From Escherichia coli (GTDB taxonomy: Bacteria > Pseudomonadota > Gammaproteobacteria > Enterobacterales > Enterobacteriaceae), in NCBI RefSeq assembly GCF_044647545.1, contig NZ_CP172818.1: 64,000 nucleotides of DNA; one strand, given 5' to 3'. Both the position numbers and the translations under genes were made by a program. Below, piece by piece: positions 29,379-57,284 of this stretch. How positions within the stretch are numbered: position 1 is the stretch's first letter; the number at the start of each line of letters is the position of its first letter. A model generated the notes under the pieces. It did not search any database, had not been told where the DNA came from, and saw only the letters and a program-made list of their open reading frames with translations.

Positions 29379-29425
29379 GGGTTAGATGAATATCTGCTAT
29401 CCTGCCCCCGCACTAAGGGGGCAGT

Positions 29426-29899: not shown

Positions 29900-29908
29900 T
29901 TACTGTAT

Positions 29909-29937
29909 GCCGGATAGATGATTACATCGCATCCGGC
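29909..29937. terminator. REP-like hairpin between convergent trmL and cysE (probable bidirectional terminator)
   Basis: gccggat(ag)...atccggc inverted repeat with a 15-nt loop. Confidence 0.5.
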
Positions 29938-29951
29938 ACAATCACAGGACG

Positions 29952-30773: not shown

Positions 30774-30852
30774 TGCTTACTCCACACGATAAGATAATGA
30801 CCGGCCCGTTCTGCGCGGGCCGGGTCATAGTGGTAACAAAGGTTCCCTGGGT

Positions 30853-31872
30853 TTAGTGGCTGCTGCGCTCGTCCTTGCGTGCACGACCTAGTAAAGTCAA
30901 TGCTGCCTCGCGCGCGTTTTTTCCGCAATATAATACTTGATAAATTTCCTCGGTTATTGGCATTTCAACGCCGAAGCGATGCGCCAGTTCGCGGACTTCT
31001 TTCGTATTGCGGTAGCCTTCCACCACTTGACCAATTTTCTCCTGCGCGCTTTGTACATCCATGCCCTGACCGAGCATCATGCCAAAACGGCGGTTACGCG
31101 ACTGGTTGTCGGTACAGGTCAGCACCAGATCGCCCAGCCCCGCCATGCCCATAAAGGTGGCAGGATCGGCACCCAGCGCCGCGCCAAGACGCGACATCTC
31201 AGCCAGCCCACGGGTGATCAGCGCCGTACGCGCATTCGCGCCAAAACCGATACCGTCGGACATCCCCGCGCCAATGGCAATGACGTTTTTCACCGCGCCG
31301 CCAAGCTGCACACCGATGAAATCCGGGTTGCTGTAAACGCGGAAACTTTTGCCACAGTGCAGCAATTGCTGGAGGTCATCGGCAAAGGTCTGGTCCGTCG
31401 AGGCCAGCGAAATGGCCGTCGGTAAACCTGCCGCCAGTTCTTTCGCAAACGTTGGGCCAGAGATAACCGCCAGCGGAATTTGATCGCCTAAGGCCTCACG
31501 CGCTACGTCCTGTAACAGACGTCCGGTTTCTGCTTCCAGCCCTTTGGTCGCCCACACCAGACGCGCATCAGGACGCATCAGCGGTTTAATCTGGCGCAGC
31601 ACTTCACCAAAGACATGGCTGGGTACGACGACGAGAATATTACGGCTGGCTGCCAGCGCAGTGGCGAGATCGCTTTCAAGATGGAGCGTATCGGGAAAAG
31701 GCACATCGGGGAGAAACGCGGCGTTACAGCGGTCGCGTTCAAGCGTTGCGATATGTTCAGGGTCATGGCCCCAGAGGACAACCTCGTGGCCATTTCTTGC
31801 CAGGGTAATGGCAAGAGCGGTGCCGTACGAGCCGGCACCGATCACAGTCATTGAAGCATTACGTTGGTTCAT
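30853..31872 (-). CDS. gpsA: NAD(P)H-dependent glycerol-3-phosphate dehydrogenase
   Basis: 339-aa ORF ([29 protein letters not shown]...). Confidence 0.95.
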
Positions 31873-32339
31873 CAGGCATCCTGATGTTCTTCAGTACCTT
31901 CGCCAGCCTGCTGCTGCAAATAGTTCATGAACAGCGCATCGAAGTTAACCGGCGCAAGGTTCAGTTGCGGGAATGTACCGCGGGATACCATGCTGGTGAT
32001 GCACTCACGAGCATACGGGAACAGAATGTTCGGGCAGTATGCACCCAGGCAATGTGCCATCTGGGTGCCTTCGATACCCGCGATGGAGAAAATACCGCCC
32101 TGCTGAACTTCACACAGGAACGCGGTTTCTTCGCCCAGGGAGGCCGTTACGGTAACACGCAGTACCACTTCGTAAACGTCATCTGCCAGTTGAGAAGATG
32201 CCGTATCCAGATCAAGTTTAACTTCTGGCTGCCAATCTTTCTGGAAAACGTGCGGCGCGTTCGGCGCTTCGAAAGAAATATCCTTGGTATAAATACGTTG
32301 GATCTGGAAAGTCATTTCGGTGTTGTTTTGTTCTGACAT
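31872..32339 (-). CDS. secB: Protein-export chaperone SecB
   Basis: 155-aa ORF ([33 protein letters not shown]...). Confidence 0.95.
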
Positions 32340-32401
32340 GTGTAGAAAACCCTTAAGTGTTGTCCTTAAATACTGCGCAATGTAATGCCAACGTTCACAC
32401 G

Positions 32402-32653
32402 TTATTTCAGCAGGGGATCCAGTCCACCACGTGCATCCAATGCATACAAGTCATCACAGCCGCCAATGTGCTGTGCGTCAATAAAAATCTGGGGAACCGT
32501 GGTGCGACCGCTGCGTTTGATCATCTCTTCACGCTTAGCGGCGTTGCCATCGATCGGCAACTCCTGAAAACTCACGCCCTTGCTGCTCAGCAGTGCTTTC
32601 GCACGATGGCAATACGGGCAGGTTTCTTTGGTATAGATTTCAACATTGGCCAT
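32402..32653 (-). CDS. grxC: Glutaredoxin 3
   Basis: 83-aa ORF with the CPYC active site ([22 protein letters not shown]...). Confidence 0.95.
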
Positions 32654-32794
32654 AACTTAGCTCCTGTTTTTTTACCCTGAAATTTCATGTTGCAGGGCGG
32701 CTGCAAAATGGAGTGTCCCCAGAAGCTTATAACAATAAGTCGCTGGGGGCCTAATTGCAGCTAACGGCCTGCATCATGAAAGACGACAGGTAAA

Positions 32795-33226
32795 TTATTT
32801 GCCGCGCACCAGAGGTAAGTTTTCGCCAGCCCAGCCAGCAACGCCCTCTTTCAGCACGAATACTTGCGCAAAACCAGCTTTCGTCAGCGCGTTTGCAGGC
32901 TCCTGGCACTGCATGCCAGAACCGTCTACCACGATAACCGGTTTGTCTTTGTGCTTCTCAAGCTCACCAACATTGTTGGCTTTGATTTCGCTCGGCAACA
33001 GGTTGATAGAACCTGCGATATGGCCTTTACGGAAGTCATCACGCTGACGTAAATCCACAACCACAGCATCTTCTTTGTTGATCAGACGCGTAGCTTCACC
33101 ACGAGTAATCACCTTCACTTTCGAGGTCAGGCTCTTAAACGTAGTCACAATAACCGCCACCAGTAACGCGATCCAGGCGATACTCAGTATGGGATGACGG
33201 CCAACAAATTGCATAATTTCTTGCAT
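32795..33226 (-). CDS. yibN: Rhodanese-domain membrane-anchored protein
   Basis: 143-aa product from the ATG at 33226 ([27 protein letters not shown]...), rhodanese fold C-terminus. Confidence 0.85.
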
Positions 33227-33470
33227 GGGGGGTAACAACTCCCGACGTAGTGATTAAAAAAACCAGGAAAGGAGTATACCTGCGCGTTGCGGCAAATACA
33301 GCCAGCGCGTTAACTGGAATGCAATTTTGCGGGGCGCTACGAAAAAAAAGCGTAAATCTGGCATCTGCTTGCCGCGAGCGGTCGTATATTTTGATCTTCA
33401 GAGGCTATTTTATCGATTCAGCTGTAGTAAAATTACGCAAATTTTGACTCTTGAGTATGAGGTTGTCGCA

Positions 33471-35015
33471 ATGTCGGTTTCTAAAAAACCTATGGTACTG
33501 GTGATTCTGGATGGCTATGGCTATCGCGAAGAACAGCAGGATAACGCCATTTTTAGTGCTAAAACCCCGGTAATGGATGCACTGTGGGCCAATCGTCCGC
33601 ATACCCTGATCGACGCTTCCGGTCTGGAAGTCGGTCTGCCTGACCGTCAGATGGGCAACTCCGAAGTAGGCCACGTTAACCTGGGTGCCGGCCGCATCGT
33701 GTATCAGGACCTGACTCGTCTGGACGTTGAAATCAAAGATCGCGCTTTCTTTGCTAATCCGGTGTTGACTGGTGCAGTAGATAAAGCGAAAAACGCAGGC
33801 AAAGCAGTACACATTATGGGTCTGCTCTCCGCAGGTGGTGTACACAGCCACGAAGATCACATCATGGCGATGGTAGAACTGGCAGCTGAACGCGGCGCAG
33901 AAAAAATCTACCTACACGCATTCCTTGACGGTCGCGACACTCCGCCGCGCAGTGCTGAATCCTCGCTGAAAAAATTCGAAGAGAAATTTGCCGCGCTGGG
34001 TAAAGGCCGCGTAGCGTCCATCATTGGTCGTTACTACGCGATGGACCGCGATAACCGTTGGGATCGCGTTGAAAAAGCTTATGACCTGCTGACTCTGGCG
34101 CAAGGTGAGTTCCAGGCCGATACCGCCGTTGCCGGTTTGCAGGCTGCTTATGCTCGCGACGAAAACGACGAGTTCGTGAAAGCGACCGTTATTCGTGCAG
34201 AAGGTCAGCCAGATGTGGCAATGGAAGACGGCGATGCACTGATTTTCATGAACTTCCGTGCTGACCGCGCGCGTGAAATCACTCGAGCATTCGTAAATGC
34301 CGATTTTGACGGCTTCGCGCGTAAGAAAGTGGTTAACGTCGATTTCGTGATGCTGACCGAATACGCTGCCGACATCAAAACCGCAGTGGCTTACCCACCC
34401 GCTTCCCTGGTTAACACCTTCGGCGAATGGATGGCGAAAAACGACAAAACTCAGCTGCGTATTTCCGAAACCGAAAAATATGCCCACGTCACTTTCTTCT
34501 TTAACGGTGGCGTAGAAGAGTCGTTCAAAGGCGAAGATCGCATTCTGATCAACTCACCGAAAGTGGCTACCTACGATCTGCAACCGGAAATGAGCTCCGC
34601 AGAGCTGACCGAAAAACTGGTTGCGGCAATCAAGAGCGGCAAATACGACACCATTATCTGTAACTATCCGAACGGCGACATGGTAGGTCACACCGGGGTG
34701 ATGGAAGCGGCGGTTAAAGCGGTTGAAGCGCTGGATCACTGCGTGGAAGAAGTCGCGAAAGCGGTTGAGTCCGTGGGTGGACAACTGCTGATCACCGCTG
34801 ACCACGGTAACGCTGAACAGATGCGCGATCCGGCAACGGGTCAGGCGCACACAGCACACACCAACCTGCCAGTTCCGCTGATTTACGTTGGTGATAAGAA
34901 CGTGAAAGCGGTTGAAGGCGGCAAACTTTCTGACATCGCGCCGACCATGTTGTCGCTGATGGGTATGGAAATCCCGCAAGAGATGACTGGTAAGCCGCTG
35001 TTCATCGTGGAATAA
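33471..35015 (+). CDS. gpmM: 2,3-bisphosphoglycerate-independent phosphoglycerate mutase
   Basis: 514-aa product from the ATG at 33471 ([28 protein letters not shown]...). Confidence 0.95.
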
Positions 35016-35048
35016 TCCCTCCCCATGAGGGGAAAGGCGATTAATACC

Positions 35049-36308
35049 ATGACACGGGCCGTGAAACCGCGCAGGTTTGCAATCAGGCCCATCATCTACG
35101 CCAGCGTTCTGAGCGCTGGCGTATTGTTGTGCGCCTTTTCCGCCCACGCGGATGAGCGTGACCAACTCAAATCCATTCAGGCTGACATCGCCGCGAAAGA
35201 GCGCGCGGTACGCCAAAAGCAACAACAACGCGCAAGCCTGCTCGCACAATTGAAAAAGCAGGAAGAGGCGATATCTGAAGCCACTCGCAAACTGCGCGAA
35301 ACGCAAAATACGCTCAATCAACTCAATAAACAGATTGATGAGATGAACGCGTCGATTGCCAAACTGGAGCAGCAAAAAGCCGCCCAGGAGCGCAGCCTCG
35401 CCGCGCAACTGGATGCCGCGTTTCGTCAGGGTGAACATACCGGTATTCAGCTGATTCTCAGCGGTGAAGAAAGCCAGCGTGGGCAGCGCTTACAGGCTTA
35501 TTTCGGCTATCTCAACCAGGCGCGACAAGAAACCATTGCTCAGTTGAAACAAACGCGTGAAGAAGTCGCTATGCAGCGTGCCGAACTGGAAGAGAAACAG
35601 AGCGAGCAACAAACGCTTTTATATGAGCAGCGCGCCCAACAGGCGAAGCTGACCCAGGCGTTGAGCGAGCGTAAAAAGACGCTGGCAGGGCTGGAGTCTT
35701 CCATCCAGCAAGGTCAGCAACAGTTGAGCGAGCTGCGCGCCAACGAATCCCGCCTGCGTAACAGCATTGCCCGTGCGGAAGCTGCGGCGAAAGCGCGTGC
35801 TGAACGAGAAGCGCGTGAGGCCCAGGCGGTTCGCGACCGCCAGAAAGAAGCGACGCGCAAAGGCACCACCTACAAGCCGACCGAAAGCGAAAAATCGCTG
35901 ATGTCCCGAACTGGTGGCCTGGGTGCGCCGCGTGGTCAGGCATTCTGGCCGGTTCGCGGGCCGACGCTGCATCGCTATGGTGAACAGCTACAGGGCGAAC
36001 TACGCTGGAAAGGAATGGTTATCGGTGCCTCTGAAGGTACTGAAGTTAAAGCGATTGCCGACGGCCGGGTGATTCTGGCTGACTGGCTGCAAGGCTACGG
36101 TCTGGTGGTGGTGGTTGAGCACGGTAAAGGCGACATGAGTCTTTACGGCTATAATCAGAGCGCACTGGTGAGCGTTGGTTCGCAGGTTCGCGCGGGCCAG
36201 CCAATTGCACTGGTGGGCAGCAGTGGCGGTCAGGGTCGGCCTTCACTCTATTTCGAAATTCGCCGCCAGGGTCAGGCGGTCAATCCACAGCCGTGGTTGG
36301 GAAGATAA
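35049..36308 (+). CDS. envC: Murein hydrolase activator EnvC (coiled-coil plus LytM domain)
   Basis: 419-aa product (MTRAVKPRRFAIRPIIYASVLSAGVLLCAFSAHA...), long Q/E/A-rich coiled coil and C-terminal M23-like domain. Confidence 0.9.
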   Translation: MTRAVKPRRFAIRPIIYASVLSAGVLLCAFSAHADERDQLKSIQADIAAKERAVRQKQQQRASLLAQLKKQEEAISEATRKLRETQNTLNQLNKQIDEMNASIAKLEQQKAAQERSLAAQLDAAFRQGEHTGIQLILSGEESQRGQRLQAYFGYLNQARQETIAQLKQTREEVAMQRAELEEKQSEQQTLLYEQRAQQAKLTQALSERKKTLAGLESSIQQGQQQLSELRANESRLRNSIARAEAAAKARAEREAREAQAVRDRQKEATRKGTTYKPTESEKSLMSRTGGLGAPRGQAFWPVRGPTLHRYGEQLQGELRWKGMVIGASEGTEVKAIADGRVILADWLQGYGLVVVVEHGKGDMSLYGYNQSALVSVGSQVRAGQPIALVGSSGGQGRPSLYFEIRRQGQAVNPQPWLGR

Positions 36309-36311
36309 GTT

Positions 36312-37271
36312 TTGTTTCCATTTCGTCGTAACGTTCTTGCATTTGCCGCTCTGTTGGCGCTCTCCTCCCCCGTAATTGCTGGCAAACTTGCCATCGTCAT
36401 TGATGATTTTGGGTATCGCCCGCACAACGAAAACCAGGTGCTGGCGATGCCTTCCGCTATCTCCGTCGCTGTATTACCCGATTCACCGCACGCCAGAGAG
36501 ATGGCGACCAAAGCGCATAACAGCGGTCACGAAGTGTTGATTCATCTCCCGATGGCACCGTTGAGTAAACAGCCGCTGGAGAAAAATACGCTGCGCCCGG
36601 AGATGAGCAGCGACGAAATTGAGCGCATTATTCGTAGTGCGGTCAATAACGTGCCCTATGCCGTGGGGATCAATAACCACATGGGCAGCAAGATGACCTC
36701 TAACCTGTTTGGTATGCAGAAAGTGATGCAGGCGCTGGAGCGTTACAATCTTTACTTCCTCGACAGCGTAACCATCGGTAATACCCAGGCGATGCGCGCC
36801 GCGCAAGGCACTGGCGTGAAGGTGATCAAACGGAAGGTGTTCCTCGACGATTCGCAGAACGAAGCGGACATCCGTGTACAGTTTAATCGCGCAATTGACC
36901 TGGCGCGTCGCAACGGATCAACCATTGCCATTGGGCATCCTCACCCTTCAACGGTACGCGTGCTACAACAGATGGTTTATAACCTGCCGCCAGACATTAC
37001 GCTGGTGAAAGCCAGCAGCTTGCTGAATGAACCGCAGGTTGATACGTCTACACCGCCGAAAAACACTGTGCCCGACGCACCGCGTAATCCGTTCCGTGGC
37101 GTGAAGCTCTGCAAACCGAAGAAACCGCTGGAACCTGTTTATGCTAATCGCTTCTTTGAAGTATTAAGCGAAAGCATCAGCCAGAGCACGCTGATCGTTT
37201 ACTTCCAGCATCAGTGGCAAGGCTGGGGCAAACAGCCTGAAGCGGCGAAGCTTAACGCTAGCGCAAATTAA
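36312..37271 (+). CDS. yibQ: Divergent polysaccharide deacetylase family protein
   Basis: 319-aa ORF with signal peptide (MFPFRRNVLAFAALLALSSPVIAG). Confidence 0.85.
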   Translation: MFPFRRNVLAFAALLALSSPVIAGKLAIVIDDFGYRPHNENQVLAMPSAISVAVLPDSPHAREMATKAHNSGHEVLIHLPMAPLSKQPLEKNTLRPEMSSDEIERIIRSAVNNVPYAVGINNHMGSKMTSNLFGMQKVMQALERYNLYFLDSVTIGNTQAMRAAQGTGVKVIKRKVFLDDSQNEADIRVQFNRAIDLARRNGSTIAIGHPHPSTVRVLQQMVYNLPPDITLVKASSLLNEPQVDTSTPPKNTVPDAPRNPFRGVKLCKPKKPLEPVYANRFFEVLSESISQSTLIVYFQHQWQGWGKQPEAAKLNASAN

Positions 37272-38292
37272 AGGCGCTACGCGTAATGCGATGGTGCGAC
37301 CGCGTTTTGTCGCGCCATTGCCATAAGCGGAAAGACCACAGTAACGCCTGATAACCCACCTTCACGCTGCGCACATTGGTAATCAGGCGCTTATACATAC
37401 CGGAAGTAAATATCTCGGCAATCATCCGTTGGCGGGTAATAATATCCGGCTCTTTGCGCACCGCATGGCAAACACGCAATGCTTCGTAGGTTATTTGCTG
37501 ATGAAATTCCGGATAAATCGTAATTTTGTCAGCATAATTTCGATTTAATTTCTCCAGCAGGCGGGTAATCTTAATATAGTGACGTTGATAATTAAGGTTT
37601 TTGTTCCCTTGTCTGTTCAACCGACTCACTGACGTATTATGCAGATAATATTTATATAATGATTGCTCGGTATATCGCGCACGCAGCGCGTTAAACATAA
37701 ATTCTGTTGTCCAGACAATATCCTGATGATGTAATCCGGCAATAAATTTAATGTTATTTTTAACAATAACATCGCGGCGATAAACCCCCATCCAGACCAC
37801 GTGTGTCCAACGGCGGGAAGAAAGTCCCATCCGCAGCCAGTCCGGACCAGTTAATACACCGGTTGAGCGAAGGCGATCGGTAGGGATGGATTGCCAGGTT
37901 TCACCCGTTTCACGAAAACACCAATCAGCGTTGCACTGCGCCACGTCGAGGTCGTCCTCTAACGCCATGGTCATCAGCGTTTCGTACATGGTGGGATAGA
38001 CCTCATCGTCAGCATCGACAAAAGCGACATATTTTCCCGTTGCCACCTCGATCCCACGATTACGCGCCACCGATGCGCCAGCATTCGCCTGATGCAACAA
38101 ACGAACGTGCGGATAGTTTTCTGCGTAATGCTTTGCTATTTCAACAGAATTATCCGTTGAACCATCGTTAATAATAATGATTTCCAGAGCAGTCCATGTT
38201 TGCGCAATTAAAGATTCCATACAAGTGCGGAAATCATTGCCCGCATTATATAACGGAATAATAACACTAAGTTTATTGGTGCTGTTCATCAT
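37258..38292 (-). CDS. waaH: Family 2 glycosyltransferase (LPS core glucuronic acid transferase WaaH/YibD)
   Basis: 344-aa ORF (MMNSTNKLSVIIPLYNAGNDFRTCMESLIAQT...), GT-A with DxD; 3' end overlaps yibQ convergently by 14 bp. Confidence 0.85.
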   Translation of the reverse strand: MMNSTNKLSVIIPLYNAGNDFRTCMESLIAQTWTALEIIIINDGSTDNSVEIAKHYAENYPHVRLLHQANAGASVARNRGIEVATGKYVAFVDADDEVYPTMYETLMTMALEDDLDVAQCNADWCFRETGETWQSIPTDRLRSTGVLTGPDWLRMGLSSRRWTHVVWMGVYRRDVIVKNNIKFIAGLHHQDIVWTTEFMFNALRARYTEQSLYKYYLHNTSVSRLNRQGNKNLNYQRHYIKITRLLEKLNRNYADKITIYPEFHQQITYEALRVCHAVRKEPDIITRQRMIAEIFTSGMYKRLITNVRSVKVGYQALLWSFRLWQWRDKTRSHHRITRSAFNLR

Positions 38293-38530
38293 AAATTACC
38301 GACGACCTCTGAAGTTATCCTGACGTTTTACAGGCTTTGTATTAAGAAACTATTAAGCCTGTGAGATATTATTTTTACCGGTGAGAGAGTCACGTCAGGG
38401 TAGAGAGATAATGAGAGCAGCTATATAAGAGATCAGCGCAATTACGATATCTTGATTACACTGACAGGATTTTACATATTTAACGGATTATCCTCAGGAA
38501 AAAGGGCTGGAATACCAGCCCTTGTTTGTG

Positions 38531-39556
38531 TTAATCCCAGCTCAGGATAACTTTCCCGGACTGGCCCGAACGCATGGCGTCAAAGCCCTTCTGGAAATCA
38601 TCGATAGAGAAACGATGAGTAATGATCGGCGAAAGATCGAGGCCAGACTGAATCAGCGCCGCCATCTTGTACCAGGTTTCAAACATCTCACGACCGTAAA
38701 TACCTTTAATGAACAAGCCTTTAAAGATCACTTTGGTCCAGTCGATAGACATATCAGACGGTGGAATACCCAGCATCGCAATACGACCGCCGTGGTTCAT
38801 GGTGTCGAGCATGGTACGAAACGCTGGCGGCGCACCGGACATTTCCAGACCGACATCAAAGCCTTCGGTCATGCCCAGTTCTGTCATCACATCATTAAGG
38901 TTTTCTTTCGCGACGTTAACCGCACGGGTGATACCCATTTTACGCGCCAGCTCAAGGCGGTATTCGTTAACATCAGTAATCACCACGTTACGTGCACCAA
39001 CGTGTTTCGCCACCGCCGCAGCCATAATACCTATCGGACCTGCACCAGAAACCAGTACATCTTCGCCCACCAGATCGAACGACAGCGCAGTATGCACGGC
39101 GTTACCGAACGGATCAAAAATGGAAGCCAAATCGTCGGAGATATTGTCAGGGATTTTGAAGGCGTTGAACGCCGGAATCACCAGATATTCGGCGAAGCAG
39201 CCCGGACGGTTAACACCGACACCAGTGGTGTTGCGGCACAGATGGGTACGACCGCCACGACAGTTGCGACAGTGACCGCAAGTGATATGGCCTTCACCAG
39301 ATACGCGATCGCCAATCTTGAAGCCTTTCACTTCCTGACCAATACCTACCACTTCACCGACATATTCATGGCCCACGACCATCGGCACCGGGATGGTTTT
39401 TTGCGACCACTCATCCCAGTTATAGATGTGAACGTCAGTCCCGCAGATGGCTGTTTTACGGATTTTAATCAGCAGATCGTTATGCCCGAGTTCCGGTACA
39501 GGAACGTCGGTCATCCAGATGCCCTCTTCCGCTTTCAGTTTGGATAACGCTTTCAT
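38531..39556 (-). CDS. tdh: L-threonine 3-dehydrogenase
   Basis: 341-aa zinc-ADH family ORF ([43 protein letters not shown]...). Confidence 0.95.
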
Positions 39557-39565
39557 CTCACATCC

Positions 39566-40762
39566 TCAGGCGATAACGCCCAGTTGTTTACCAATACGCG
39601 TGAATGCTTCTACTGCACGCGTAATTTGCTCAGGGGTATGCGCCGCAGACATCTGGGTACGAATACGCGCCTGACCTTTCGGAACGACCGGATAGAAGAA
39701 ACCGGTGACGTAAATCCCCTCTTTTTGCAGCTCACGAGCAAATTTCTGCGCTACTACCGCATCGCCAAGCATGACCGGAATAATGGCGTGATCGGCTCCC
39801 GCCAGGGTAAAGCCCGCCGCCGACATTTGCTCACGGAACTGACGCGCGTTCGCCCACAGACGGTCACGCAGCTCGCTACCCGCTTCAACCATCTCCAGCA
39901 CTTTGATGGAAGCGGCAACAATGGCCGGTGCCAGCGAGTTGGAGAACAGGTACGGACGAGAACGCTGGCGCAGCCACTCAACCACTTCTTTGCGCGCCGC
40001 GGTATAACCACCAGAAGCCCCGCCCAATGCTTTACCCAACGTACCGGTAATGATGTCTACACGCCCCATCACATCGCAGTATTCATGGGAACCACGACCG
40101 TTTTCACCGACAAAACCGACCGCGTGGGAGTCGTCTACCATCACCAGGGCATCGTATTTATCTGCCAGATCGCAAACGCCCTTCAGATTGGCAATCACGC
40201 CGTCCATCGAGAACACACCATCGGTGGCAATCAGCACATGACGCGCACCGGCTTCACGCGCTTCTTTCAGACGAGCTTCCAGCTCCTGCATATCGTTGTT
40301 GGCATAGCGATAGCGTTTAGCTTTACACAGACGCACACCATCAATAATAGACGCGTGGTTCAGTGCGTCGGAGATAATGGCGTCTTCCGCGCCCAACAGC
40401 GTTTCAAACAGGCCACCGTTAGCATCAAAGCAGGAAGAGTAGAGAATCGCATCTTCCATCCCCAGGAAGGCCGCCAGTTTTTGTTCAAGCTCTTTATGAC
40501 TGTCCTGAGTGCCGCAAATAAAACGCACCGAAGCCATGCCGAAACCGTGAGAATCCATTCCCGCCTTTGCCGCCGCAATCAGATCCGGATGATTCGCCAG
40601 TCCGAGATAGTTATTGGCACAAAAGTTAATGACGTGGCTTCCATCAGCCACAGTGATATCTGCTTGCTGCGCAGACGTAATAATGCGCTCTTCTTTAAAC
40701 AACCCTTCCGCCCGTGCGGTTTCCAGATCGTTGGTTAACTGCTGATAACATTCTCCACGCAT
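39566..40762 (-). CDS. kbl: 2-amino-3-ketobutyrate CoA ligase (glycine C-acetyltransferase)
   Basis: 398-aa PLP-dependent ORF ([33 protein letters not shown]...). Confidence 0.95.
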
Positions 40763-40971
40763 TGCGATTCTCCAGACAGGGCAAATTCCAGCACATATTA
40801 CCCAAACTTATAGGTCGCGACGAGATGACGCGTTAACACTTCTGCAAAATTCAGGATAAATCCAGCCCCCTCACTTTTGGTGAATGGCTGAAGCCAACGT
40901 CATGTAGTGATATGATAAGAAGTATTCGTGTCTGAGATTGTCTCTGACTCCATAATTCGAAGGTTACAGCT

Positions 40972-41904
40972 ATGATCATCGTTACCGGCGGCGCGGGCTT
41001 TATCGGCAGCAACATCGTTAAAGCCCTGAATGATAAAGGCATCACCGATATTCTGGTGGTGGACAACCTGAAAGACGGCACCAAGTTTGTCAACCTGGTG
41101 GATCTGGATATCGCGGACTATATGGATAAGGAAGACTTCCTGATCCAGATTATGGCTGGCGAAGAGTTCGGCGATGTCGAAGCGATTTTCCACGAAGGCG
41201 CGTGCTCTTCCACCACCGAGTGGGACGGCAAGTATATGATGGATAACAACTATCAATACTCCAAAGAGCTGCTGCACTACTGTCTGGAGCGCGAAATCCC
41301 GTTCCTGTATGCCTCTTCCGCAGCCACTTACGGTGGACGCACCTCCGACTTTATTGAATCCCGCGAATATGAAAAACCGTTGAATGTCTACGGTTACTCA
41401 AAATTCCTGTTTGATGAATATGTTCGCCAAATCCTGCCTGAAGCGAACTCGCAGATTGTTGGCTTCCGTTATTTCAACGTTTATGGACCGCGTGAAGGCC
41501 ATAAAGGCAGCATGGCGAGCGTCGCTTTCCATCTCAACACCCAGCTTAATAACGGTGAATCACCGAAGCTGTTCGAAGGTAGCGAGAACTTTAAACGCGA
41601 CTTCGTCTATGTGGGCGACGTGGCAGATGTAAACCTGTGGTTCCTGGAAAATGGCGTTTCCGGCATCTTCAACCTCGGTACTGGTCGTGCGGAATCCTTC
41701 CAGGCTGTAGCAGATGCTACGCTTGCTTATCACAAGAAAGGCCAGATCGAATACATTCCGTTCCCGGATAAACTGAAAGGCCGCTATCAGGCGTTCACGC
41801 AGGCAGACCTGACGAATCTGCGCGCGGCGGGTTATGACAAACCGTTCAAAACCGTTGCCGAAGGCGTAACGGAATACATGGCCTGGCTGAATCGCGACGC
41901 ATAA
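40972..41904 (+). CDS. hldD: ADP-L-glycero-D-manno-heptose 6-epimerase
   Basis: 310-aa ORF ([33 protein letters not shown]...). Confidence 0.95.
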
Positions 41905-41913
41905 GAGCTCTGC

Positions 41914-42960
41914 ATGAAAATACTGGTGATCGGCCCGTCTTGGGTTGGCGACATGATGATGTCGCAAAGTCTCTATCGCACGCTCCAGGCGCGCTATCCC
42001 CAGGCGATAATCGACGTGATGGCACCGGCATGGTGCCGTCCATTATTATCGCGGATGCCGGAAGTTAACGAAGCTATTCCTATGCCTCTCGGTCACGGAG
42101 CGCTGGAAATCGGCGAACGCCGCAAACTGGGTCATAGTCTGCGTGAAAAGCGCTACGACCGCGCCTACGTCTTACCCAACTCCTTCAAGTCCGCATTAGT
42201 GCCTTTCTTCGCGGGTATTCCTCATCGCACCGGCTGGCGCGGCGAGATGCGCTACGGTTTACTTAACGATGTACGCGTGCTCAATAAAGAAGCCTGGCCG
42301 CTAATGGTGGAACGCTATGTCGCGCTGGCCTATGACAAAGGCATTATGCGTACAGCACAAGATCTGCCGCAGCCATTGTTATGGCCGCAGTTGCAGGTGA
42401 GCGAAGGTGAAAAATCATATACCTGTAATCAATTTTCGCTTTCATCAGAACGTCCGATGATTGGCTTTTGCCCGGGTGCGGAGTTTGGTCCGGCAAAACG
42501 CTGGCCACACTACCACTATGCGGAGCTGGCAAAGCAGCTGATTGATGAAGGTTATCAGGTGGTTCTGTTTGGCTCGGCGAAAGATCATGAAGCGGGCAAT
42601 GAGATTCTTGCCGCTTTGAATACTGAGCAGCAGGCATGGTGTCGTAACCTGGCGGGGGAAACACAGCTTGATCAAGCGGTTATCCTGATTGCAGCCTGTA
42701 AAGCCATTGTCACTAACGATTCTGGCCTGATGCACGTTGCGGCGGCGCTCAATCGTCCGCTGGTTGCCCTGTATGGTCCGAGTAGCCCAGACTTCACACC
42801 GCCGCTATCCCATAAAGCGCGCGTGATCCGCCTGATTACCGGCTATCACAAAGTGCGTAAAGGTGACGCTGCGGAGGGTTATCACCAGAGCTTGATCGAC
42901 ATTACTCCCCAGCGCGTACTGGAAGAACTCAACGCGCTATTGTTACAAGAGGAAGCCTGA
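41914..42960 (+). CDS. waaF: LPS heptosyltransferase II
   Basis: 348-aa ORF (MKILVIGPSWVGDMMMSQSLYRTLQARYP...). Confidence 0.95.
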   Translation: MKILVIGPSWVGDMMMSQSLYRTLQARYPQAIIDVMAPAWCRPLLSRMPEVNEAIPMPLGHGALEIGERRKLGHSLREKRYDRAYVLPNSFKSALVPFFAGIPHRTGWRGEMRYGLLNDVRVLNKEAWPLMVERYVALAYDKGIMRTAQDLPQPLLWPQLQVSEGEKSYTCNQFSLSSERPMIGFCPGAEFGPAKRWPHYHYAELAKQLIDEGYQVVLFGSAKDHEAGNEILAALNTEQQAWCRNLAGETQLDQAVILIAACKAIVTNDSGLMHVAAALNRPLVALYGPSSPDFTPPLSHKARVIRLITGYHKVRKGDAAEGYHQSLIDITPQRVLEELNALLLQEEA

Positions 42961-42963
42961 CGG

Positions 42964-43923
42964 ATGCGGGTTTTGATCGTTAAAACATCGTCGATGGGCG
43001 ATGTTCTCCATACGTTGCCCGCACTCACTGATGCCCAGCAGGCAATCCCAGGGATTAAGTTTGACTGGGTGGTGGAAGAAGGGTTCGCACAGATTCCTTC
43101 CTGGCACGCCGCCGTTGAGCGAGTTATTCCTGTGGCAATACGTCGCTGGCGTAAAGCCTGGTTCTCGGCCCCCATAAAAGCTGAACGCAAAGCGTTTCGT
43201 GAAGCGCTACAAGCAGAGAACTATGACGCAGTTATCGATGCTCAGGGGCTGGTAAAAAGCGCGGCGCTGGTGACGCGTCTGGCGCATGGCGTAAAGCATG
43301 GCATGGACTGGCAAACCGCTCGCGAACCTTTAGCCAGCCTGTTTTACAATCGTAAGCATCATATTGCGAAACAGCAGCACGCCGTAGAACGCACCCGCGA
43401 ACTGTTTGCCAAAAGTTTGGGCTATAGCAAACCGCAAACCCAGGGCGATTATGCTATCGCACAGCATTTCCTGACGAACCGGCCTACAGATGCTGGCGAA
43501 TATGCCGTATTTCTTCATGCGACGACCCGTGATGATAAACACTGGCCGGAAGAACACTGGCGAGAATTGATTGGTTTACTGGCTGATTCAGGAATACGGA
43601 TTAAACTTCCGTGGGGCGCGCCGCATGAGGAAGAACGGGCGAAACGACTGGCGGAAGGATTTGCTTATGTTGAAGTATTGCCGAAGATGAGTCTGGAAGG
43701 CGTTGCCCGCGTGCTGGCCGGGGCTAAATTTGTAGTGTCGGTGGATACGGGGTTAAGCCATTTAACGGCGGCACTGGATAGACCCAATATCACGGTTTAT
43801 GGACCAACCGATCCTGGATTAATTGGTGGGTATGGGAAGAATCAGATGGTTTGTAGGGCTCCAAGAGAAAATTTAAATAACCTCAACAGTCAAGCAGTTT
43901 TGGAAAAGTTATCATCATTATAA
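42964..43923 (+). CDS. waaC: LPS heptosyltransferase I
   Basis: 319-aa ORF (MRVLIVKTSSMGDVLHTLPALTDAQQAIPG...). Confidence 0.95.
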   Translation: MRVLIVKTSSMGDVLHTLPALTDAQQAIPGIKFDWVVEEGFAQIPSWHAAVERVIPVAIRRWRKAWFSAPIKAERKAFREALQAENYDAVIDAQGLVKSAALVTRLAHGVKHGMDWQTAREPLASLFYNRKHHIAKQQHAVERTRELFAKSLGYSKPQTQGDYAIAQHFLTNRPTDAGEYAVFLHATTRDDKHWPEEHWRELIGLLADSGIRIKLPWGAPHEEERAKRLAEGFAYVEVLPKMSLEGVARVLAGAKFVVSVDTGLSHLTAALDRPNITVYGPTDPGLIGGYGKNQMVCRAPRENLNNLNSQAVLEKLSSL

Positions 43924-43932
43924 AGGTAAAAC

Positions 43933-45192
43933 ATGCTAACATCCTTTAAACTTCATTCATTGAAACCTTACACTCTGAAATCATCAATGATTTTAGAGAT
44001 AATAACTTATATATTATGTTTTTTTTCAATGATAATTGCATTCGTCGATAATACTTTCAGCATAAAAATATATAATATCACTGCTATAGTTTGCTTATTG
44101 TCACTAATTTTACGTGGCAGACAAGAAAATTATAATATAAAAAACCTTATTCTTCCCCTTTCTATATTTTTAATAGGCTTGCTTGATTTAATTTGGTATT
44201 CTGCGTTTAAAGTAGATAATTCGCCATTTCGTGCTACTTACCATAGTTATTTAAATACTGCCAAAATATTTATATTTGGTTCTTTTATTGTTTTCTTGAC
44301 ACTAACTAGCCAGCTAAAATCAAAAAAAGAGAGTGTATTATACACTTTGTATTCTCTGTCATTTCTAATTGCTGGATATGCAATGTATATTAATAGCATT
44401 CATGAAAATGACCGCATTTCTTTTGGTGTAGGAACGGCAACAGGAGCAGCATATTCAACAATGCTAATAGGGATAGTTAGTGGCGTTGCGATTCTTTATA
44501 CTAAGAAAAATCATCCTTTTTTATTTTTATTAAATAGTTGCGCGGTACTTTATGTTCTGGCGCTAACACAAACCAGAGCAACCCTACTCCTGTTCCCTAT
44601 AATTTGTGTTGCTGCATTAATAGCTTATTATAATAAATCACCCAAGAAATTCACTTCCTCTATTGTTCTACTAATTGCTATATTAGCTAGCATTGTTATT
44701 ATATTTAATAAACCAATACAGAATCGCTATAATGAAGCATTAAATGACTTAAACAGTTATACCAATGCTAATAGTGTTACTTCCCTAGGTGCAAGACTGG
44801 CAATGTACGAAATTGGTTTAAATATATTCATAAAGTCACCTTTTTCATTTAGATCAGCAGAGTCACGCGCTGAAAGTATGAATTTGTTAGTTGCAGAACA
44901 CAATAGGCTAAGAGGGGCATTGGAGTTTTCTAACGTACATCTACATAATGAGATAATTGAAGCAGGGTCACTGAAAGGTCTGATGGGAATTTTTTCCACA
45001 CTTTTCCTCTATTTTTCACTATTTTATATAGCATATAAAAAACGAGCTTTGGGTTTGTTGATATTAACGCTTGGCATTGTGGGGATTGGACTCAGTGATG
45101 TGATCATATGGGCACGCAGCATTCCAATTATCATTATATCCGCTATAGTCCTCTTACTCGTCATTAATAATCGTAACAATACAATTAATTAA
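43933..45192 (+). CDS. waaL: O-antigen ligase (K-12 type)
   Basis: 419-aa polytopic membrane ORF (MLTSFKLHSLKPYTLKSSMILEIITYILCFF...), AT-rich. Confidence 0.9.
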   Translation: MLTSFKLHSLKPYTLKSSMILEIITYILCFFSMIIAFVDNTFSIKIYNITAIVCLLSLILRGRQENYNIKNLILPLSIFLIGLLDLIWYSAFKVDNSPFRATYHSYLNTAKIFIFGSFIVFLTLTSQLKSKKESVLYTLYSLSFLIAGYAMYINSIHENDRISFGVGTATGAAYSTMLIGIVSGVAILYTKKNHPFLFLLNSCAVLYVLALTQTRATLLLFPIICVAALIAYYNKSPKKFTSSIVLLIAILASIVIIFNKPIQNRYNEALNDLNSYTNANSVTSLGARLAMYEIGLNIFIKSPFSFRSAESRAESMNLLVAEHNRLRGALEFSNVHLHNEIIEAGSLKGLMGIFSTLFLYFSLFYIAYKKRALGLLILTLGIVGIGLSDVIIWARSIPIIIISAIVLLLVINNRNNTIN

Positions 45193-45223
45193 GAATAAAC
45201 AAGTTTAAGAAGTGAGTTAAAAC

Positions 45224-46297
45224 TCACTTCTTATCTATACAACTTAATCTCTTTACTGAATTAGTTAAAGTTTCAGTATCGATATCTTTTACCGTATATG
45301 TTGGGGATACTATTTGTATAGATTTATGATGATTCGGGGACCAAATTAAATGCGAGGGATATTCCGGAGTACGTGAATTAGGGTAAAATGCAAGCGTTGG
45401 TTTATGATAAGCCGCAGCGATATGAACAAGAGCTGTATCAACAGAAATGACAAAATCACTATACTTGGTCAACGCAACGGTATAAATAAACTCATCAAAT
45501 GGTAGTGTTTCGATTTCAAGTATTGGTATTGTCAATAAATCTTGCGGTAACCCGGTAAATATAATCCGATAATTTTCAAAGTGTGTTTTCACTTCTTGAT
45601 ATATAACTTTTATTTGCTCAAACGTAAGACGGCATATTTTTTTTGCACCTAATGGATTAATAATGACTATTCTTGTATCTCCAATAAATTCTTTTATTTT
45701 ATCTTCAACATCTACTGGTAAATGCAAGTCGTAGTTGGTGGAAAATTTACCCTCACCATAAATATGCTTCAGTATTTCTATTGCTCGTGTACTCATATGT
45801 TCTTTTAAACATTCATCGTGGGGATGGTAAAATGAATAGTAACGCTTATACCAATGATCAAAACCCAGAATGTAAGAATCTTTTAAACTTGATAATATTA
45901 AGCTATGCTTAAATGAGGGCATAGTTTCAAAGGGGTCTAATACAATATCGAACTGTAAATCCCGCAGATGCTTACATAGAGTAAGCATTTCAAGAAAACC
46001 GGTTGATTCTTTAATACAGAACTCAAATATATTTTTATTATTAGAGAGAAATTCCCCACCCTTTCTATTTGTGAGAAGAGTTATTTTAACCCCTTTACTA
46101 TAAAGTTCACGATAAATCGAACTTAATACAATTAGATCACCAAGTTTATTATTATCATGAATAATAAGGCATGATTTAACTTGTGCTGGATCTGTAATTT
46201 GATTATTTATTTTATTACGAAATAAAAAAGAAAGGAAATTAATCTTGATTTTGTTTATATAAAATCTTTTCTTTTTGTGAAAAGTTCCTAAGCGCAT
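45224..46297 (-). CDS. waaU: LPS core heptosyltransferase IV (WaaU/RfaK)
   Basis: 357-aa GT9-family ORF; position in the K-12 core cluster. Confidence 0.85.
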   Translation of the reverse strand: MRLGTFHKKKRFYINKIKINFLSFLFRNKINNQITDPAQVKSCLIIHDNNKLGDLIVLSSIYRELYSKGVKITLLTNRKGGEFLSNNKNIFEFCIKESTGFLEMLTLCKHLRDLQFDIVLDPFETMPSFKHSLILSSLKDSYILGFDHWYKRYYSFYHPHDECLKEHMSTRAIEILKHIYGEGKFSTNYDLHLPVDVEDKIKEFIGDTRIVIINPLGAKKICRLTFEQIKVIYQEVKTHFENYRIIFTGLPQDLLTIPILEIETLPFDEFIYTVALTKYSDFVISVDTALVHIAAAYHKPTLAFYPNSRTPEYPSHLIWSPNHHKSIQIVSPTYTVKDIDTETLTNSVKRLSCIDKK

Positions 46298-46329
46298 TTT
46301 TATACCATATTATTTTAGTTTCAGGATGA

Positions 46330-47181
46330 TTAATTAGCATAAGAATCGGTTGAAGTTCTATATTGCATTTTTTTTCTTGTCATATCTTTTGATTCTTCTG
46401 CACTGATGTCTTGAAGTTTAATAAATGGAATTACATCGTAAGAAATAGCTGTATCATCTGATAAATTATAAATATTAATATCTTTTACATTATCATGCAT
46501 AAAACGAAAAAATGGCAATATTTTGAATAAATCCCTACTTAATTCCGAGGGCATGGGATTTTTATTCTCATCATAGAAACGAGAACAGCTACCCGTTAAA
46601 TCAAGACCAGAACAAATAATCCGCGCATACTTAAGTGAATATGCGATTTGAATTGCAGCAAAGGCAATAGTATGGCATGAGCAATAACCAAGACTAATGT
46701 CCTTGCAAAATCCAACCAGACGACCTTTTTTAGACAACGGTACAGAGATCAGCAGTTCTTTGTGAATCTGTCTCAAAATATTAAATTTAATCTTCTTTAT
46801 AAAACCACCTTTTTCCCGACGGTAAAAGGACCGTAATACGAGGCAGTTCTGGAGGATATAAAGTTTATCTTCTTTGGAAGCGTGTTCATAAACGTCAACG
46901 TTTACTATGGTATAACGACTTCTCTGGCTAAATTTATAAAAATCATCACGACGCTGATGTAAAAATCGGACATCTGTAAGTACATATATAAAAGGAACGA
47001 TATTATTACTTAACAGATATTGCGCAGAACCATTGACAGCAATAATATCCTTTGTTCGTAATACTGACAAAGGTGTTTTTTGCGATGTAGGGCCCGAAAG
47101 AAAAATAATAACATCATCAGATATTTTATTTTCAATCAGGTTTTCAACATCTTTTTTGTCAATGTATCTAATATTCTTCAT
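46330..47181 (-). CDS. waaZ: LPS core biosynthesis protein WaaZ (KdoIII-related)
   Basis: 283-aa ORF (MKNIRYIDKKDVENLIENKISDDVIIFLSGPTSQ...); K-12 core-type gene. Confidence 0.8.
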   Translation of the reverse strand: MKNIRYIDKKDVENLIENKISDDVIIFLSGPTSQKTPLSVLRTKDIIAVNGSAQYLLSNNIVPFIYVLTDVRFLHQRRDDFYKFSQRSRYTIVNVDVYEHASKEDKLYILQNCLVLRSFYRREKGGFIKKIKFNILRQIHKELLISVPLSKKGRLVGFCKDISLGYCSCHTIAFAAIQIAYSLKYARIICSGLDLTGSCSRFYDENKNPMPSELSRDLFKILPFFRFMHDNVKDINIYNLSDDTAISYDVIPFIKLQDISAEESKDMTRKKMQYRTSTDSYAN

Positions 47182-47251
47182 GATAAACCTGTGAAATAAA
47201 TAACTCCGCTTAAAACTGTCCTGGTGAAGACATGTAATTGTGGGATTTTTT

Positions 47252-47950
47252 TTAGCGCGCTGGTTTCCCTTTCAAACGCCGCATAAAATTGCGCATTTTT
47301 TTACGATATACTAAAAGATAATAGCCTAGATCTCTAATCTCATTTTTAATACCGTAATGACGCTCTAAGTCAATACGATCTTTCGCTTTACGCTGCGCTG
47401 AAGCACGCTTTCCGGAGAGATCGATAATTCGAACCTCACCATTTTTTATAATGAAGTTACCACGATGGGGGTCGCCAGAAACCATGCCATGTTGATGTAA
47501 GGCATTAATTGATTGCTGAATTTTATTTTTTAGCGCATCATCAATATCGGGCATATCACACAACTCTATGCCATCAATATACTCGATGATCATGATATAA
47601 GTATGGACAAAACGTAAGGTTTTCCGTTCAGCCAATAAATAAAAGTCATTGAGTGTATTTAACCCTTCATTTCGTACTTTTTGGGTTTGCTCAAAAAGGC
47701 GTTCGTAATAATCACCTTTTAACAGAGACTTAAAGAAACGTTCGTTACGCTTAACTTTCGGAGAAAAAACCTTAAGAATCAATTTACCGTAATCGGTATC
47801 AATAAGCATAACTTTTGTATCATCAATAGAACGAAAAACCTTGATGATATTTATATTATAAGACAAGAAGTCATTTAATACATTGAGGTACTTTGAATTG
47901 TTTTCATCGGTAAAAACAACCAAGTCTTTGATCTTGCTCTTCTGAATCAT
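47252..47950 (-). CDS. waaY: LPS core heptose II kinase WaaY
   Basis: 232-aa ORF (MIQKSKIKDLVVFTDENNSKYLNVLNDF...), WaaP-like kinase fold. Confidence 0.85.
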   Translation of the reverse strand: MIQKSKIKDLVVFTDENNSKYLNVLNDFLSYNINIIKVFRSIDDTKVMLIDTDYGKLILKVFSPKVKRNERFFKSLLKGDYYERLFEQTQKVRNEGLNTLNDFYLLAERKTLRFVHTYIMIIEYIDGIELCDMPDIDDALKNKIQQSINALHQHGMVSGDPHRGNFIIKNGEVRIIDLSGKRASAQRKAKDRIDLERHYGIKNEIRDLGYYLLVYRKKMRNFMRRLKGKPAR

Positions 47951-47967
47951 AATAAACCAGTTAAATG

Positions 47968-48984
47968 TTATTTACGGTAATATTTTCGGCAAAGATAACA
48001 GACTCCTGCTATAATTCCTGAGATATAATGATGTTGCACTAAAAGATGTTTATATCTTTTTTTAAATTCAATAATTGATTTCGCATCTCGTGGAGAGTCA
48101 TCTTTCCAGGGGGAATTTTCTAAAGCTATTTTATAGTATTTTACCGATGGATAAATTGCCCATTTGTGCCACGGTTTAGTTGCACCTGTATAATGAATAA
48201 GAAGAGTACTTTCTGTAATCAGCTTTTTATAGTTTTGATGTGTTTTGTCTTTTAATTCACTTTTAATTGTATAAATTGTATTGTACTCACGAGGCAAAAA
48301 TAATGTCATCCCTTTCAGTAAGACATTCATAACATCCTGATCAGGGTATTTATAAACATTATCTTTACTCATAAGAATAGACAACGCTTTTTCTGTTAGT
48401 TTTGCGTCAGCCCATTTTTTTAAGTCTAAATAAACGACACCGGAATTAAAGTACTGCCCAAGTAATTCAGGATCAGACAACCTGGATACCGCCTTTTCTT
48501 GCATTGGCTCAACATCTTTAACAACAGCAGCAACCGCTCCATTTAAACCCAGATGTAATAGTTGGCTAATATCGCCTTTACAAACAACATCTGCATCAAG
48601 ATAAAGCAAACGATCAAGCGTTAAACCCAATAATTGAAATGCAAATAAACGGAAGTACATTGCTCTTGACCAGACCTGTGTACAAGGCAAGCACTGGAGC
48701 TTATCAGTGTTAATTCTATATAACGTGATTCTTAATTGGTTTTGCTCTGCAAGCTTTGCAATTTTTTGAAAAAAACCATCATTATAAACATCAGCAATAA
48801 TATAAAAATCAAGATTAATATGTCGATTATTTAGGACAATTGATGTGATGGAAACACCTACACCATCAAGATAATTAGCATCGACACCATAGGCAACATT
48901 TAAACATTCAGAAGTATTTATATTAGCTAGCCGAAAATCCCAGGCTTTAACTTTATCTATCTCTATGGCAGGAAATGAGTCCAC
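47968..48984 (-). CDS. waaJ: LPS 1,2-glucosyltransferase (WaaJ/WaaR, GT8)
   Basis: 338-aa GT8 ORF with a DxD motif. Confidence 0.85.
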   Translation of the reverse strand: MDSFPAIEIDKVKAWDFRLANINTSECLNVAYGVDANYLDGVGVSITSIVLNNRHINLDFYIIADVYNDGFFQKIAKLAEQNQLRITLYRINTDKLQCLPCTQVWSRAMYFRLFAFQLLGLTLDRLLYLDADVVCKGDISQLLHLGLNGAVAAVVKDVEPMQEKAVSRLSDPELLGQYFNSGVVYLDLKKWADAKLTEKALSILMSKDNVYKYPDQDVMNVLLKGMTLFLPREYNTIYTIKSELKDKTHQNYKKLITESTLLIHYTGATKPWHKWAIYPSVKYYKIALENSPWKDDSPRDAKSIIEFKKRYKHLLVQHHYISGIIAGVCYLCRKYYRK

Positions 48985-49023
48985 AATGCTACCCTTATAT
49001 CATTACTTTATAGTTTCCCAGTT

Positions 49024-50043
49024 TTAATGCTTTATCTTTTCAATAAAATAAAAAAGATAGTTGCTAAATCCTTTTAGATATCTATGCTTTTTAAGCATAT
49101 GTTTTGCGCTATATCTTAATTGATTGCTATTGTTCGGTTTCAGCAACGCCGTATTCTTCCATGGCGAAGCATTTTTTGCCTCCATAAAGGCTTGTGATAC
49201 AGGATAATCCCAGGCCCAATCATGCCAGGGCTTGGTTGGCCCGATATAATGGATAAAAATAGTATCGTTGGTTACTGGGTTTATAAAGCTTTCTTTGAGT
49301 TGATAATTTAAGCTGAACTGGGTGTTATATTTAATATCAGCGAAAATAAGTTTATCCGCCAGCAACATATTTAACACATCCTGATCAGGATGTGTTATTT
49401 TTTTGATTATTTCTGGCTCATTTAGCATTGCAATAGCTCGTGCAGAAACCTGCTGAGCCGCCCATTGGGCAGTATTAATCAATAAAAAACCGGAGTTAAA
49501 GTAACCTTTAGCAATTCCCGCAACACCTAACGAATGGGCGCGTTTTTCCCACCAGTCAGCTTGCCCTTCTGTAACAACCATTGCGACTTTATCGTCAGGA
49601 AATGAGAAATTAATTAGTGGCTCAATAGTCCCCTGACAAATGATATCTGCATCCAGATAAAGGACTTTAGGCGCCTTATTAATAAAGTAATCTGCAATAA
49701 CAAAACGAAAATATATTGCATGAGTCCAATTCTTAGTGCTAGGCAATGAGCGCAGTCGATCACCATTAATCAGATATATTTTAATTCTGGTTTTATACTG
49801 CAACGCCAGGGCATCAAAATACTTACGATCATCATCACCAAAATAATCAGTAAAAATATGGAAACACAATCGACTTCCTTCATTATATTTTAATATTGAA
49901 GCAATCGAAATTCCGCAACCAAATAGAAAGTTTTTGTCAGTTCCATAAGCGATGTCCAGACAAAGATTTTCTGTTTCTACTTTATGATCATAATCAATAA
50001 CTGAATTAAGAAACTCAGTTTCCTGGAAAAACACCTGCTGCAT
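49024..50043 (-). CDS. waaO: LPS 1,3-glucosyltransferase (WaaO/WaaI, GT8)
   Basis: 339-aa GT8 ORF paralogous to the preceding gene. Confidence 0.85.
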   Translation of the reverse strand: MQQVFFQETEFLNSVIDYDHKVETENLCLDIAYGTDKNFLFGCGISIASILKYNEGSRLCFHIFTDYFGDDDRKYFDALALQYKTRIKIYLINGDRLRSLPSTKNWTHAIYFRFVIADYFINKAPKVLYLDADIICQGTIEPLINFSFPDDKVAMVVTEGQADWWEKRAHSLGVAGIAKGYFNSGFLLINTAQWAAQQVSARAIAMLNEPEIIKKITHPDQDVLNMLLADKLIFADIKYNTQFSLNYQLKESFINPVTNDTIFIHYIGPTKPWHDWAWDYPVSQAFMEAKNASPWKNTALLKPNNSNQLRYSAKHMLKKHRYLKGFSNYLFYFIEKIKH

Positions 50044-51122: not shown

Positions 51123-51165
51123 AGAAACTCTCATTAATTGAGTAAAACTCACTGTTTTAACGGTT

Positions 51166-52101: not shown

Positions 52102-52137
52102 AATAAAGTTAGTTCCAGTACATACTAATAAATATTT

Positions 52138-55519: not shown

Positions 55520-57284
<1,765 letters not shown>

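Follow-up and report, generated by a model that had tools for sequence, protein, structure and literature searches.

Is a gene that is missing by comparison with Escherichia coli K-12 a gene that has been lost? The interval between kbl and hldD raises this question, as the gene htrL (yibB) lies there in K-12 and does not in the stretch of E. coli DNA analyzed here (64,000 nucleotides of contig NZ_CP172818.1, hereafter the window). A first-pass annotation of the window had placed htrL at this position in K-12, and the MG1655 record bears it out: the order is kbl (b3617), htrL (b3618, 285 amino acids, minus strand) and rfaD, or hldD (b3619), and htrL occupies a kbl-rfaD gap of 1435 bp, so that kbl does not directly adjoin hldD in the reference strain.

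To be absent is not to be lost, however. The arrangement without htrL is ancestral and the more common of the two, and the insertion is in K-12; the lack of htrL here is ordinary because it is laboratory K-12 that has the extra, foreign-looking gene. We are confident that the window carries the ancestral majority kbl-hldD allele and that the K-12 cassette is derived, independently of core type. The arrangement is already known, being visible in thousands of annotated genomes, and the finding at this spacer matters little in itself. What it illustrates is that K-12 should not be taken as the default: when a strain lacks a gene that MG1655 has, the reason is often that K-12 carries an accessory insertion, not that the other strain suffered a loss. 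Annotators should treat the spacer as a regulatory region that the kbl-tdh and hldD-waaFCL operons share, and if the cassette-borne promoter, the leader hairpin, and the clustered changes described below hold, they would be of modest use to work on LPS core regulation and threonine catabolism.

The spacer and its flanking genes

On the minus strand, kbl (39566..40762) encodes glycine C-acetyltransferase in a 398-amino-acid ORF and is the first gene of the kbl-tdh operon; among NCBIfam profiles, its product scores 745.7 bits on the TIGR01822 equivalog over residues 6 to 397, with a cutoff of 493, and also scores as the NF005394 equivalog. On the plus strand, hldD (rfaD/gmhD/htrM; 40972..41904, a 310-amino-acid ORF) encodes ADP-L-glycero-D-manno-heptose 6-epimerase and opens the hldD-waaF-waaC-waaL operon. 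HldD scores 677.5 bits on the NF008360 equivalog (cutoff 452, residues 1 to 309) and is 100% identical to HldD of E. coli FDAARGOS_497. Farther to the left of kbl, tdh and waaH are likewise confirmed as NCBIfam equivalogs.

The divergent intergenic region between kbl and hldD, an htrL-less haplotype, spans 40763..40971 and measures 209 bp, in agreement with the gap of about 210 bp without htrL given in the first-pass annotation. This spacer contains no annotated gene of any kind and is too small to leave room for the 285-amino-acid htrL gene. With K-12 HtrL as the query, a tblastn search of all 64 kb of the window gave no match at E ≤ 1e-5; the query reaches 435.9 bits on PF09612 and 550.5 on NF008462 (the family is also described by TIGR02192). 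We propose that such a spacer of about 210 bp, whose two strands carry the kbl-tdh promoter and the hldD-waaFCL promoter and leader, respectively, would never have held a gene.

Alignment with K-12 and the htrL cassette

MG1655 has the same flanking genes in the same orientations as the window (b3617 to b3619, NC_000913 3791355..3794919), and the two ends of the spacer are shared: the kbl-proximal 99 bp (40763..40861) are identical to K-12 at 98 of 99 positions and the hldD-proximal 48 bp before the ATG (40924..40971) at 47 of 48. The middle differs. Where K-12 has 1288 bp (NC_000913 3792651..3793938), the window has a haplotype-specific 62 bp (40862..40923), bounded in the pairwise alignment by shared flanks that end at 40861 and 40924, and megablast breaks at query positions 599/662. 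The first 23 bp of this segment are without a K-12 counterpart, and the following 39 bp (40885..40923) are about 59% identical to K-12 (23/39, from a manual position-by-position count on the aligned sequences). As the alignment reads, the middle of the spacer has been replaced, and the difference is no simple insertion or deletion.

At 37%, the GC content of the K-12 cassette is below that of kbl (54%) and of rfaD (51%). Within the cassette are htrL, a hairpin terminator, AT-rich spacers, and a divergent hldD promoter segment; htrL is its sole annotated gene, and no transposase gene is found within it. Genomic SELEX identified the htrL-hldD spacer as a site for RpoD and H-NS (PMC3946193), which fits foreign AT-rich DNA. 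The cassette boundaries in MG1655 (locus L001, positions 4652 and 5939) show neither terminal repeats nor a target duplication, and we rejected a transposon- or IS-borne insertion on this ground. We also rejected carriage of htrL by plasmids, as the lone "plasmid" match is a chromosome-sized record of 4.9 Mb, and by phages, where K-12-identical matches occur only in two Campylobacter phage records and Xanthomonas jumbo phages have only 25% homologues.

In the mechanism that we propose, a low-GC cassette of 1.29 kb would have replaced the middle 62 to 66 bp of the spacer in the K-12-type allele, bringing with it htrL/yibB, a terminator, an AT-rich, H-NS-bound spacer, and its own hldD −35/−10 segment. 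Exchange of the cassette by homologous recombination in the conserved flanks would then have produced a two-allele polymorphism in E. coli.

Two further features of htrL sequences can be recorded here. In MG1655, the kbl-upstream block GATAAATAACG (L001 4645..4655) is repeated perfectly, over 11 bp and in inverted orientation, upstream of htrL (5771..5781), which may be due to chance in AT-rich DNA. The two Campylobacter phages, A18a and A11a (MG065686.1 and MG065691.1), encode in their records a protein 100% identical to K-12 HtrL, most likely reflecting E. coli DNA contamination or misassembly of these records.

Distribution of the two arrangements

A survey of 5426 complete E. coli genomes, 5424 of which match the region, divides the latter without remainder. 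The htrL-less state, recognized by a one-piece match across the junction, occurs in 3465 of the 5424, and the K-12 cassette is present in 1959 (1950 of them with at least 80% of the cassette length); the two counts sum exactly to 5424. Carriers of htrL include K-12, O157:H7, O111, and O104:H4, while the htrL-less group includes BL21, ST131-type O25:H4, clone D i14, APEC O2:K1, AR435, and 13P484A. Variable presence of htrL/yibB was also listed in a pan-genome study of urinary tract infection (UTI) isolates (PMC8303582). Because 64% of complete E. coli genomes are without htrL, its lack in the window diagnoses nothing beyond excluding K-12-like strains.

Nor does htrL follow the K-12 core type. 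The K-12-type waaL-waaU-waaZ genes are found in 1031 genomes, and only 451 of these have htrL; about 1500 htrL carriers have other core types. This overlap rules out a linkage of htrL to the K-12 core.

The arrangement in other genera was surveyed with HldD as the query, using one genome per species, in a scan of 80 loci that included neither Salmonella nor E. fergusonii. Among 83 loci, those at which kbl adjoins hldD have a spacer of 212 to 306 bp without htrL, with few exceptions, and in most of the Enterobacterales sampled the length is 212 to 260 bp. The spacer measures 213 bp in E. albertii, 214 bp in Citrobacter, 215 bp in Enterobacter, 216 bp in Kluyvera, about 230 bp in Pantoea, 232 bp in Photorhabdus, 240 bp in Serratia, and 244 to 261 bp in Yersinia. 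In a multigenus alignment, the htrL-less spacers are colinear block for block, and the window fits among them; those of FDAARGOS_497, BL21, O25:H4, clone D i14, AR435, 13P484A, E. albertii, Citrobacter, and Enterobacter share its architecture and conserved blocks, with no gene inside.

This pattern is broken by the K-12-like E. coli loci, by Enterobacter sp. Ag1, and by a few longer htrL-less spacers. Ag1 is the only case beyond E. coli, in the loci scanned, of htrL at this site. Its spacer is 1439 bp, and its cassette (locus L027, 3562..5000) has an HtrL 81% identical to that of K-12 at the same insertion site and on the kbl strand, where the window is empty. Cedecea neteri (locus L026), a close relative of Ag1, has a 215-bp spacer without htrL. 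Citrobacter youngae CCUG 30791 (locus L073, 3552..4703) has instead a gene for a GT4 glycosyltransferase of 383 amino acids in a 1602-bp spacer, again where the window is empty. The insertions in Ag1 and C. youngae both sit between the kbl-proximal block and the hldD promoter, with LPS- or glycan-related genes on the kbl strand, and the GT4 gene marks the kbl-hldD spacer as a place where glycan-related genes have been inserted more than once.

By parsimony, the short spacer would be ancestral and htrL an accessory insertion. The two alleles may instead be an old polymorphism, repeatedly lost or exchanged, since the divergence of the cassette resembles that of its flanks: K-12 and Ag1 cassette DNA is about 77% identical and their kbl genes are 81% identical.

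Within E. coli there is also a second htrL-less allele. AR435 (locus L090) and about 480 other genomes have an htrL-less spacer only 83% identical to that of the window, and the AR435-type allele has 92% identity to the window over the surrounding 1.2 kb, an unusually deep divergence within a species. In the one example at hand, AR435, the neighboring core genes look R2-type.

Flanks, core cluster, and strain background

The background of the strain accounts for the K-12-type core cluster a few kilobases away. Outside islands and the waa center (43863..52241), the window and E. coli FDAARGOS_497 (NZ_CP033850.1) are near-clonal, at 99.9 to 100% identity over 64 kb. MG1655 is more distant, with 20 to 50 differences per kb on both sides of the central waa tract. 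The first-pass annotation had suggested a non-MG1655 strain with a K-12-type core, pointing to an intact rph and an IS1 in yiaW, and each element of that suggestion survives comparison. The flanks are 2 to 4% diverged from MG1655; the rph ORF is uninterrupted at 62816..63532, where identity with MG1655 would need the rph frameshift; and an IS1 element lies at 326..1094 with a 9-bp duplication, corresponding to MG1655 3754319..3754327, on both sides of it. By divergence, absence of htrL, uninterrupted rph, and IS1 in yiaW alike, the strain is not MG1655.

The core cluster is another matter. The type-specific waa center (waaL, waaU, waaZ, waaY, waaJ, waaO, waaB, waaS, and the 3' end of waaP, with gene names taken from the HS-01 and MG1655 annotations) is identical to MG1655 over 43878..52248, with 0 differences per kb in bins 44 to 51 and flanking differences at 43877 and 52249. 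From waaL(K-12) through waaS, the genes are in K-12 order and colinear with the HS-01 and MG1655 clusters, and waaL to waaZ are also identical to those of the natural isolate HS-01. FDAARGOS_497, in contrast, has a different core type at the waa center, where its waaL runs in the opposite direction. One crossover falls at the extreme end of waaC (43851..43877) and the other in the 3' end of waaP (52242..52261). Thus, a K-12 core can stand beside an htrL-less spacer because about 2.9 kb separate the spacer from the tract identical to K-12. As far as the end of waaC, the left flank comes from an FDAARGOS_497-like lineage, and only the type-specific center of the waa cluster is identical to K-12.

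The identity of the outer-core genes (43878..52248) with those of MG1655 could also suggest that the strain descends from a K-12-like ancestor that recently deleted htrL, and the company these genes keep lends this some appeal: waaL-waaU-waaZ are at least 99% K-12-like in 457 genomes, compared to 451 genomes with both features, and nearly all of the 457 appear to be htrL positive. The flanks tell otherwise. The 13.9 kb from 30000 to 43862, which include the spacer, are 99.95% identical to the htrL-less FDAARGOS_497 and about 3% different from MG1655, and 2.9 kb separate the spacer from the start of the K-12-identical tract on its right. At the junction, the 62 bp have the standard htrL-less sequence, which E. 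albertii and Citrobacter share, and are not the product of a deletion from K-12, and tblastn found no HtrL remnant in the window. The FDAARGOS_497-like flanks and the standard junction lead us to reject a recent deletion, to which we assign next to no probability.

A laboratory origin deserves somewhat more weight. If K-12 outer-core genes had been put into a wild strain, the spacer would simply be that of the recipient, and several observations are what such a hybrid would produce: there are zero MG1655 differences over 8.37 kb, neither crossover is more than about 50 bp from an edge of the type-specific segment, the databases searched have no record of the exact chimeric WaaC or WaaP sequence, and the combination of FDAARGOS_497-like flanks with a K-12 waa center occurs in no complete genome of the collection. 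Natural isolates such as HS-01 nevertheless share the K-12-identical center, and the WaaC junction is patchy, with K-12-like residues 301 to 303, an FDAARGOS-like N305, and K-12-like residues 308 to 319, a pattern suggestive of natural recombination that left mismatch-repair patches or involved an unsampled donor allele. We regard construction as improbable. Whether the waa center arose naturally or by construction, the reading of the spacer as the ancestral allele is unchanged.

To the right of the center, K-12 is the outlier. The waaP-waaG-waaQ genes of MG1655 (locus L084, 7154..10099) are about 16% diverged from those of the window (52249..55500), HS-01, and FDAARGOS_497, which are within about 1.5% of each other. 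The window also differs from FDAARGOS_497 in islands: it is without the 6.5-kb island of a DUF3251 gene and a YadA-like adhesin gene between yibL and lldP (25388..25484), the Fic-family gene next to yiaY (3410), and the reverse-transcriptase gene between slmA and pyrE (62071..62097), and the Rhs region at 12.7 to 17.2 kb is different.

Promoters in the spacer and the cassette

The spacer of the window has a candidate promoter for each operon, although a simple σ70 promoter and terminator scan reported no site at its threshold on either the kbl or the hldD side. For kbl-tdh, a candidate lies on the minus strand at 40795..40823, with a −10 element TAATAT (40800→40795), a 17-nt spacer, and a −35 element TCGTCG (40823→40818); its placement is predicted from the sequence and from the conservation of GGCACATATTACCCAAA across genera, and transcription would start at about 40788 on the minus strand. 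A −60 G>A up-mutation of kbl in Salmonella was placed by its authors in the −35 element (PMC6593847). The mutation falls on the second base of the TCGTCG hexamer, consistent with the predicted promoter.

On the hldD side, a candidate hldD-waaFCL promoter lies on the plus strand at 40888..40916, with a −35 element CTGAAG (40888..40893), a 17-nt spacer, and an extended −10 element TGaTATGAT (40908..40916). The sequences GGCTGAAG and TG-n-TATGAT are conserved in most genera aligned, and GGCTGAAG, 17 nt, and TG-n-TATGAT together probably constitute a σ70 promoter for hldD with an extended −10, from which transcription would start at about 40923 on the plus strand. We also considered a σ32-type reading of GGCTGAAG…ATGT and rejected it by our own reading of the sequence, as its elements would be too closely spaced and the sequence fits a σ70 −35 followed by an extended −10. 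Raina and Georgopoulos are said to have mapped rfaD promoters in 1991.

The 39-bp hldD promoter segment of K-12 belongs to the diverged end of the cassette. By a manual count in the multigenus alignment, it is closer to that of Ag1 (30/39) than to that of htrL-less E. coli (23/39), and the hldD leader of Ag1 is E. coli-like, not Cedecea-like. This E. coli-like leader suggests transfer of the cassette together with its promoter and leader, and htrL would appear to travel with its own version of the hldD promoter through recombination in the conserved flanks.

One could go further and regard the cassette as a "gene plus promoter" module whose exchange alters the regulation of heptose and inner-core synthesis, with the spacer of this strain also under selection. 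This extension draws on the −35, −10, and discriminator that the cassette supplies to hldD-waaFCL, on its H-NS-bound AT-rich tract, and on its sharing between E. coli and Ag1. We consider it doubtful. If it were true, htrL-positive and htrL-negative strains would differ in the control of heptose and inner-core synthesis.

A conserved hairpin in the hldD leader

The 5' leader of hldD contains a predicted stem-loop, GTCTGAGA-TTG-TCTCTGAC, at 40930..40948 on the plus strand, proposed from a minimum-free-energy hairpin and from covariation; it is the same in K-12 and the window. About 25 genera have a minimum-free-energy hairpin in this position, although their stem sequences differ. In a 22-sequence alignment with this structure stated, 5 of the 8 pairs show compensatory changes (19 cells), and the covariation score of 0.336 compares to 0.176 for shuffled alignments, with 0 of 500 shuffles reaching 0.336; slid controls reach at most 0.226. 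RNAalifold returned no structure on the wide 25-genus alignment because of misalignment, and it was the narrower alignment that showed the covariation. At E ≤ 1, Rfam 15 gave 0 covariance-model matches in 40600..41150. Since the stem leaves the ribosome-binding site uncovered, our guess is that it acts as a 5'-proximal stabilizing hairpin.

Private changes in this strain

All htrL-less E. coli spacers examined are 213 bp except that of the window, which a 5-bp deletion and a 1-bp insertion bring to 209 bp. Across 25484..43862 and 52242..62071 (about 28 kb), the window has only three differences from FDAARGOS_497: an A>C change at 40749 (plus strand) that makes Kbl F5C, the deletion of TAACG between 40861 and 40862, and an extra A at 40917/40918, just downstream of the hldD −10. 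All three fall within 169 bp, for which we calculate a probability under random placement of P ≈ 3×(169/28209)² ≈ 1e-4. Both indels are found in 0 of 5424 complete genomes, where the best full-length spacer identity is 97.2%.

The odd length invites the suspicion that the short spacer is an assembly or sequencing artifact, either a collapsed region or a set of indel errors, as 209 bp stands against 213 bp in every other htrL-less spacer examined and the 1-bp difference sits in a short run of A. The 5-bp deletion, in contrast, lies in nonrepetitive sequence and is atypical of sequencing errors, and the neighboring F5C substitution is present in independent assemblies. Because the htrL-less arrangement recurs in 3465 complete E. 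coli genomes, the short spacer is a real allelic difference, neither chance nor artifact, and we put the probability of an artifactual spacer as very low. For the two indels taken by themselves, sequencing error is possible.

The TAACG deletion truncates a block, CAG[C/G]ATAAAT[A/C]ACG, that is kept in 14 of 14 spacers aligned; its remnant lies at 40853..40862, about 100 bp upstream of the kbl ATG. The block is a candidate Lrp site, lying in the region where Lrp sites are expected, and a scan of the spacer with the Lrp consensus matched at best 11 of 15 positions. The extra A after the hldD −10 is probably harmless, since other genera have the longer form. Mutations upstream of kbl and in lrp enable Salmonella to grow on threonine (PMC6593847), and it is possible that the private changes in this strain reflect selection on kbl-tdh expression.

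The third change lies within the coding sequence. F5 of Kbl is invariant in 21 other Enterobacterales Kbl N termini, and the exact Kbl F5C protein occurs on two unrelated htrL-positive backgrounds (loci L088 and L089, 3001..4197), one of them 99.97% identical to MG1655.
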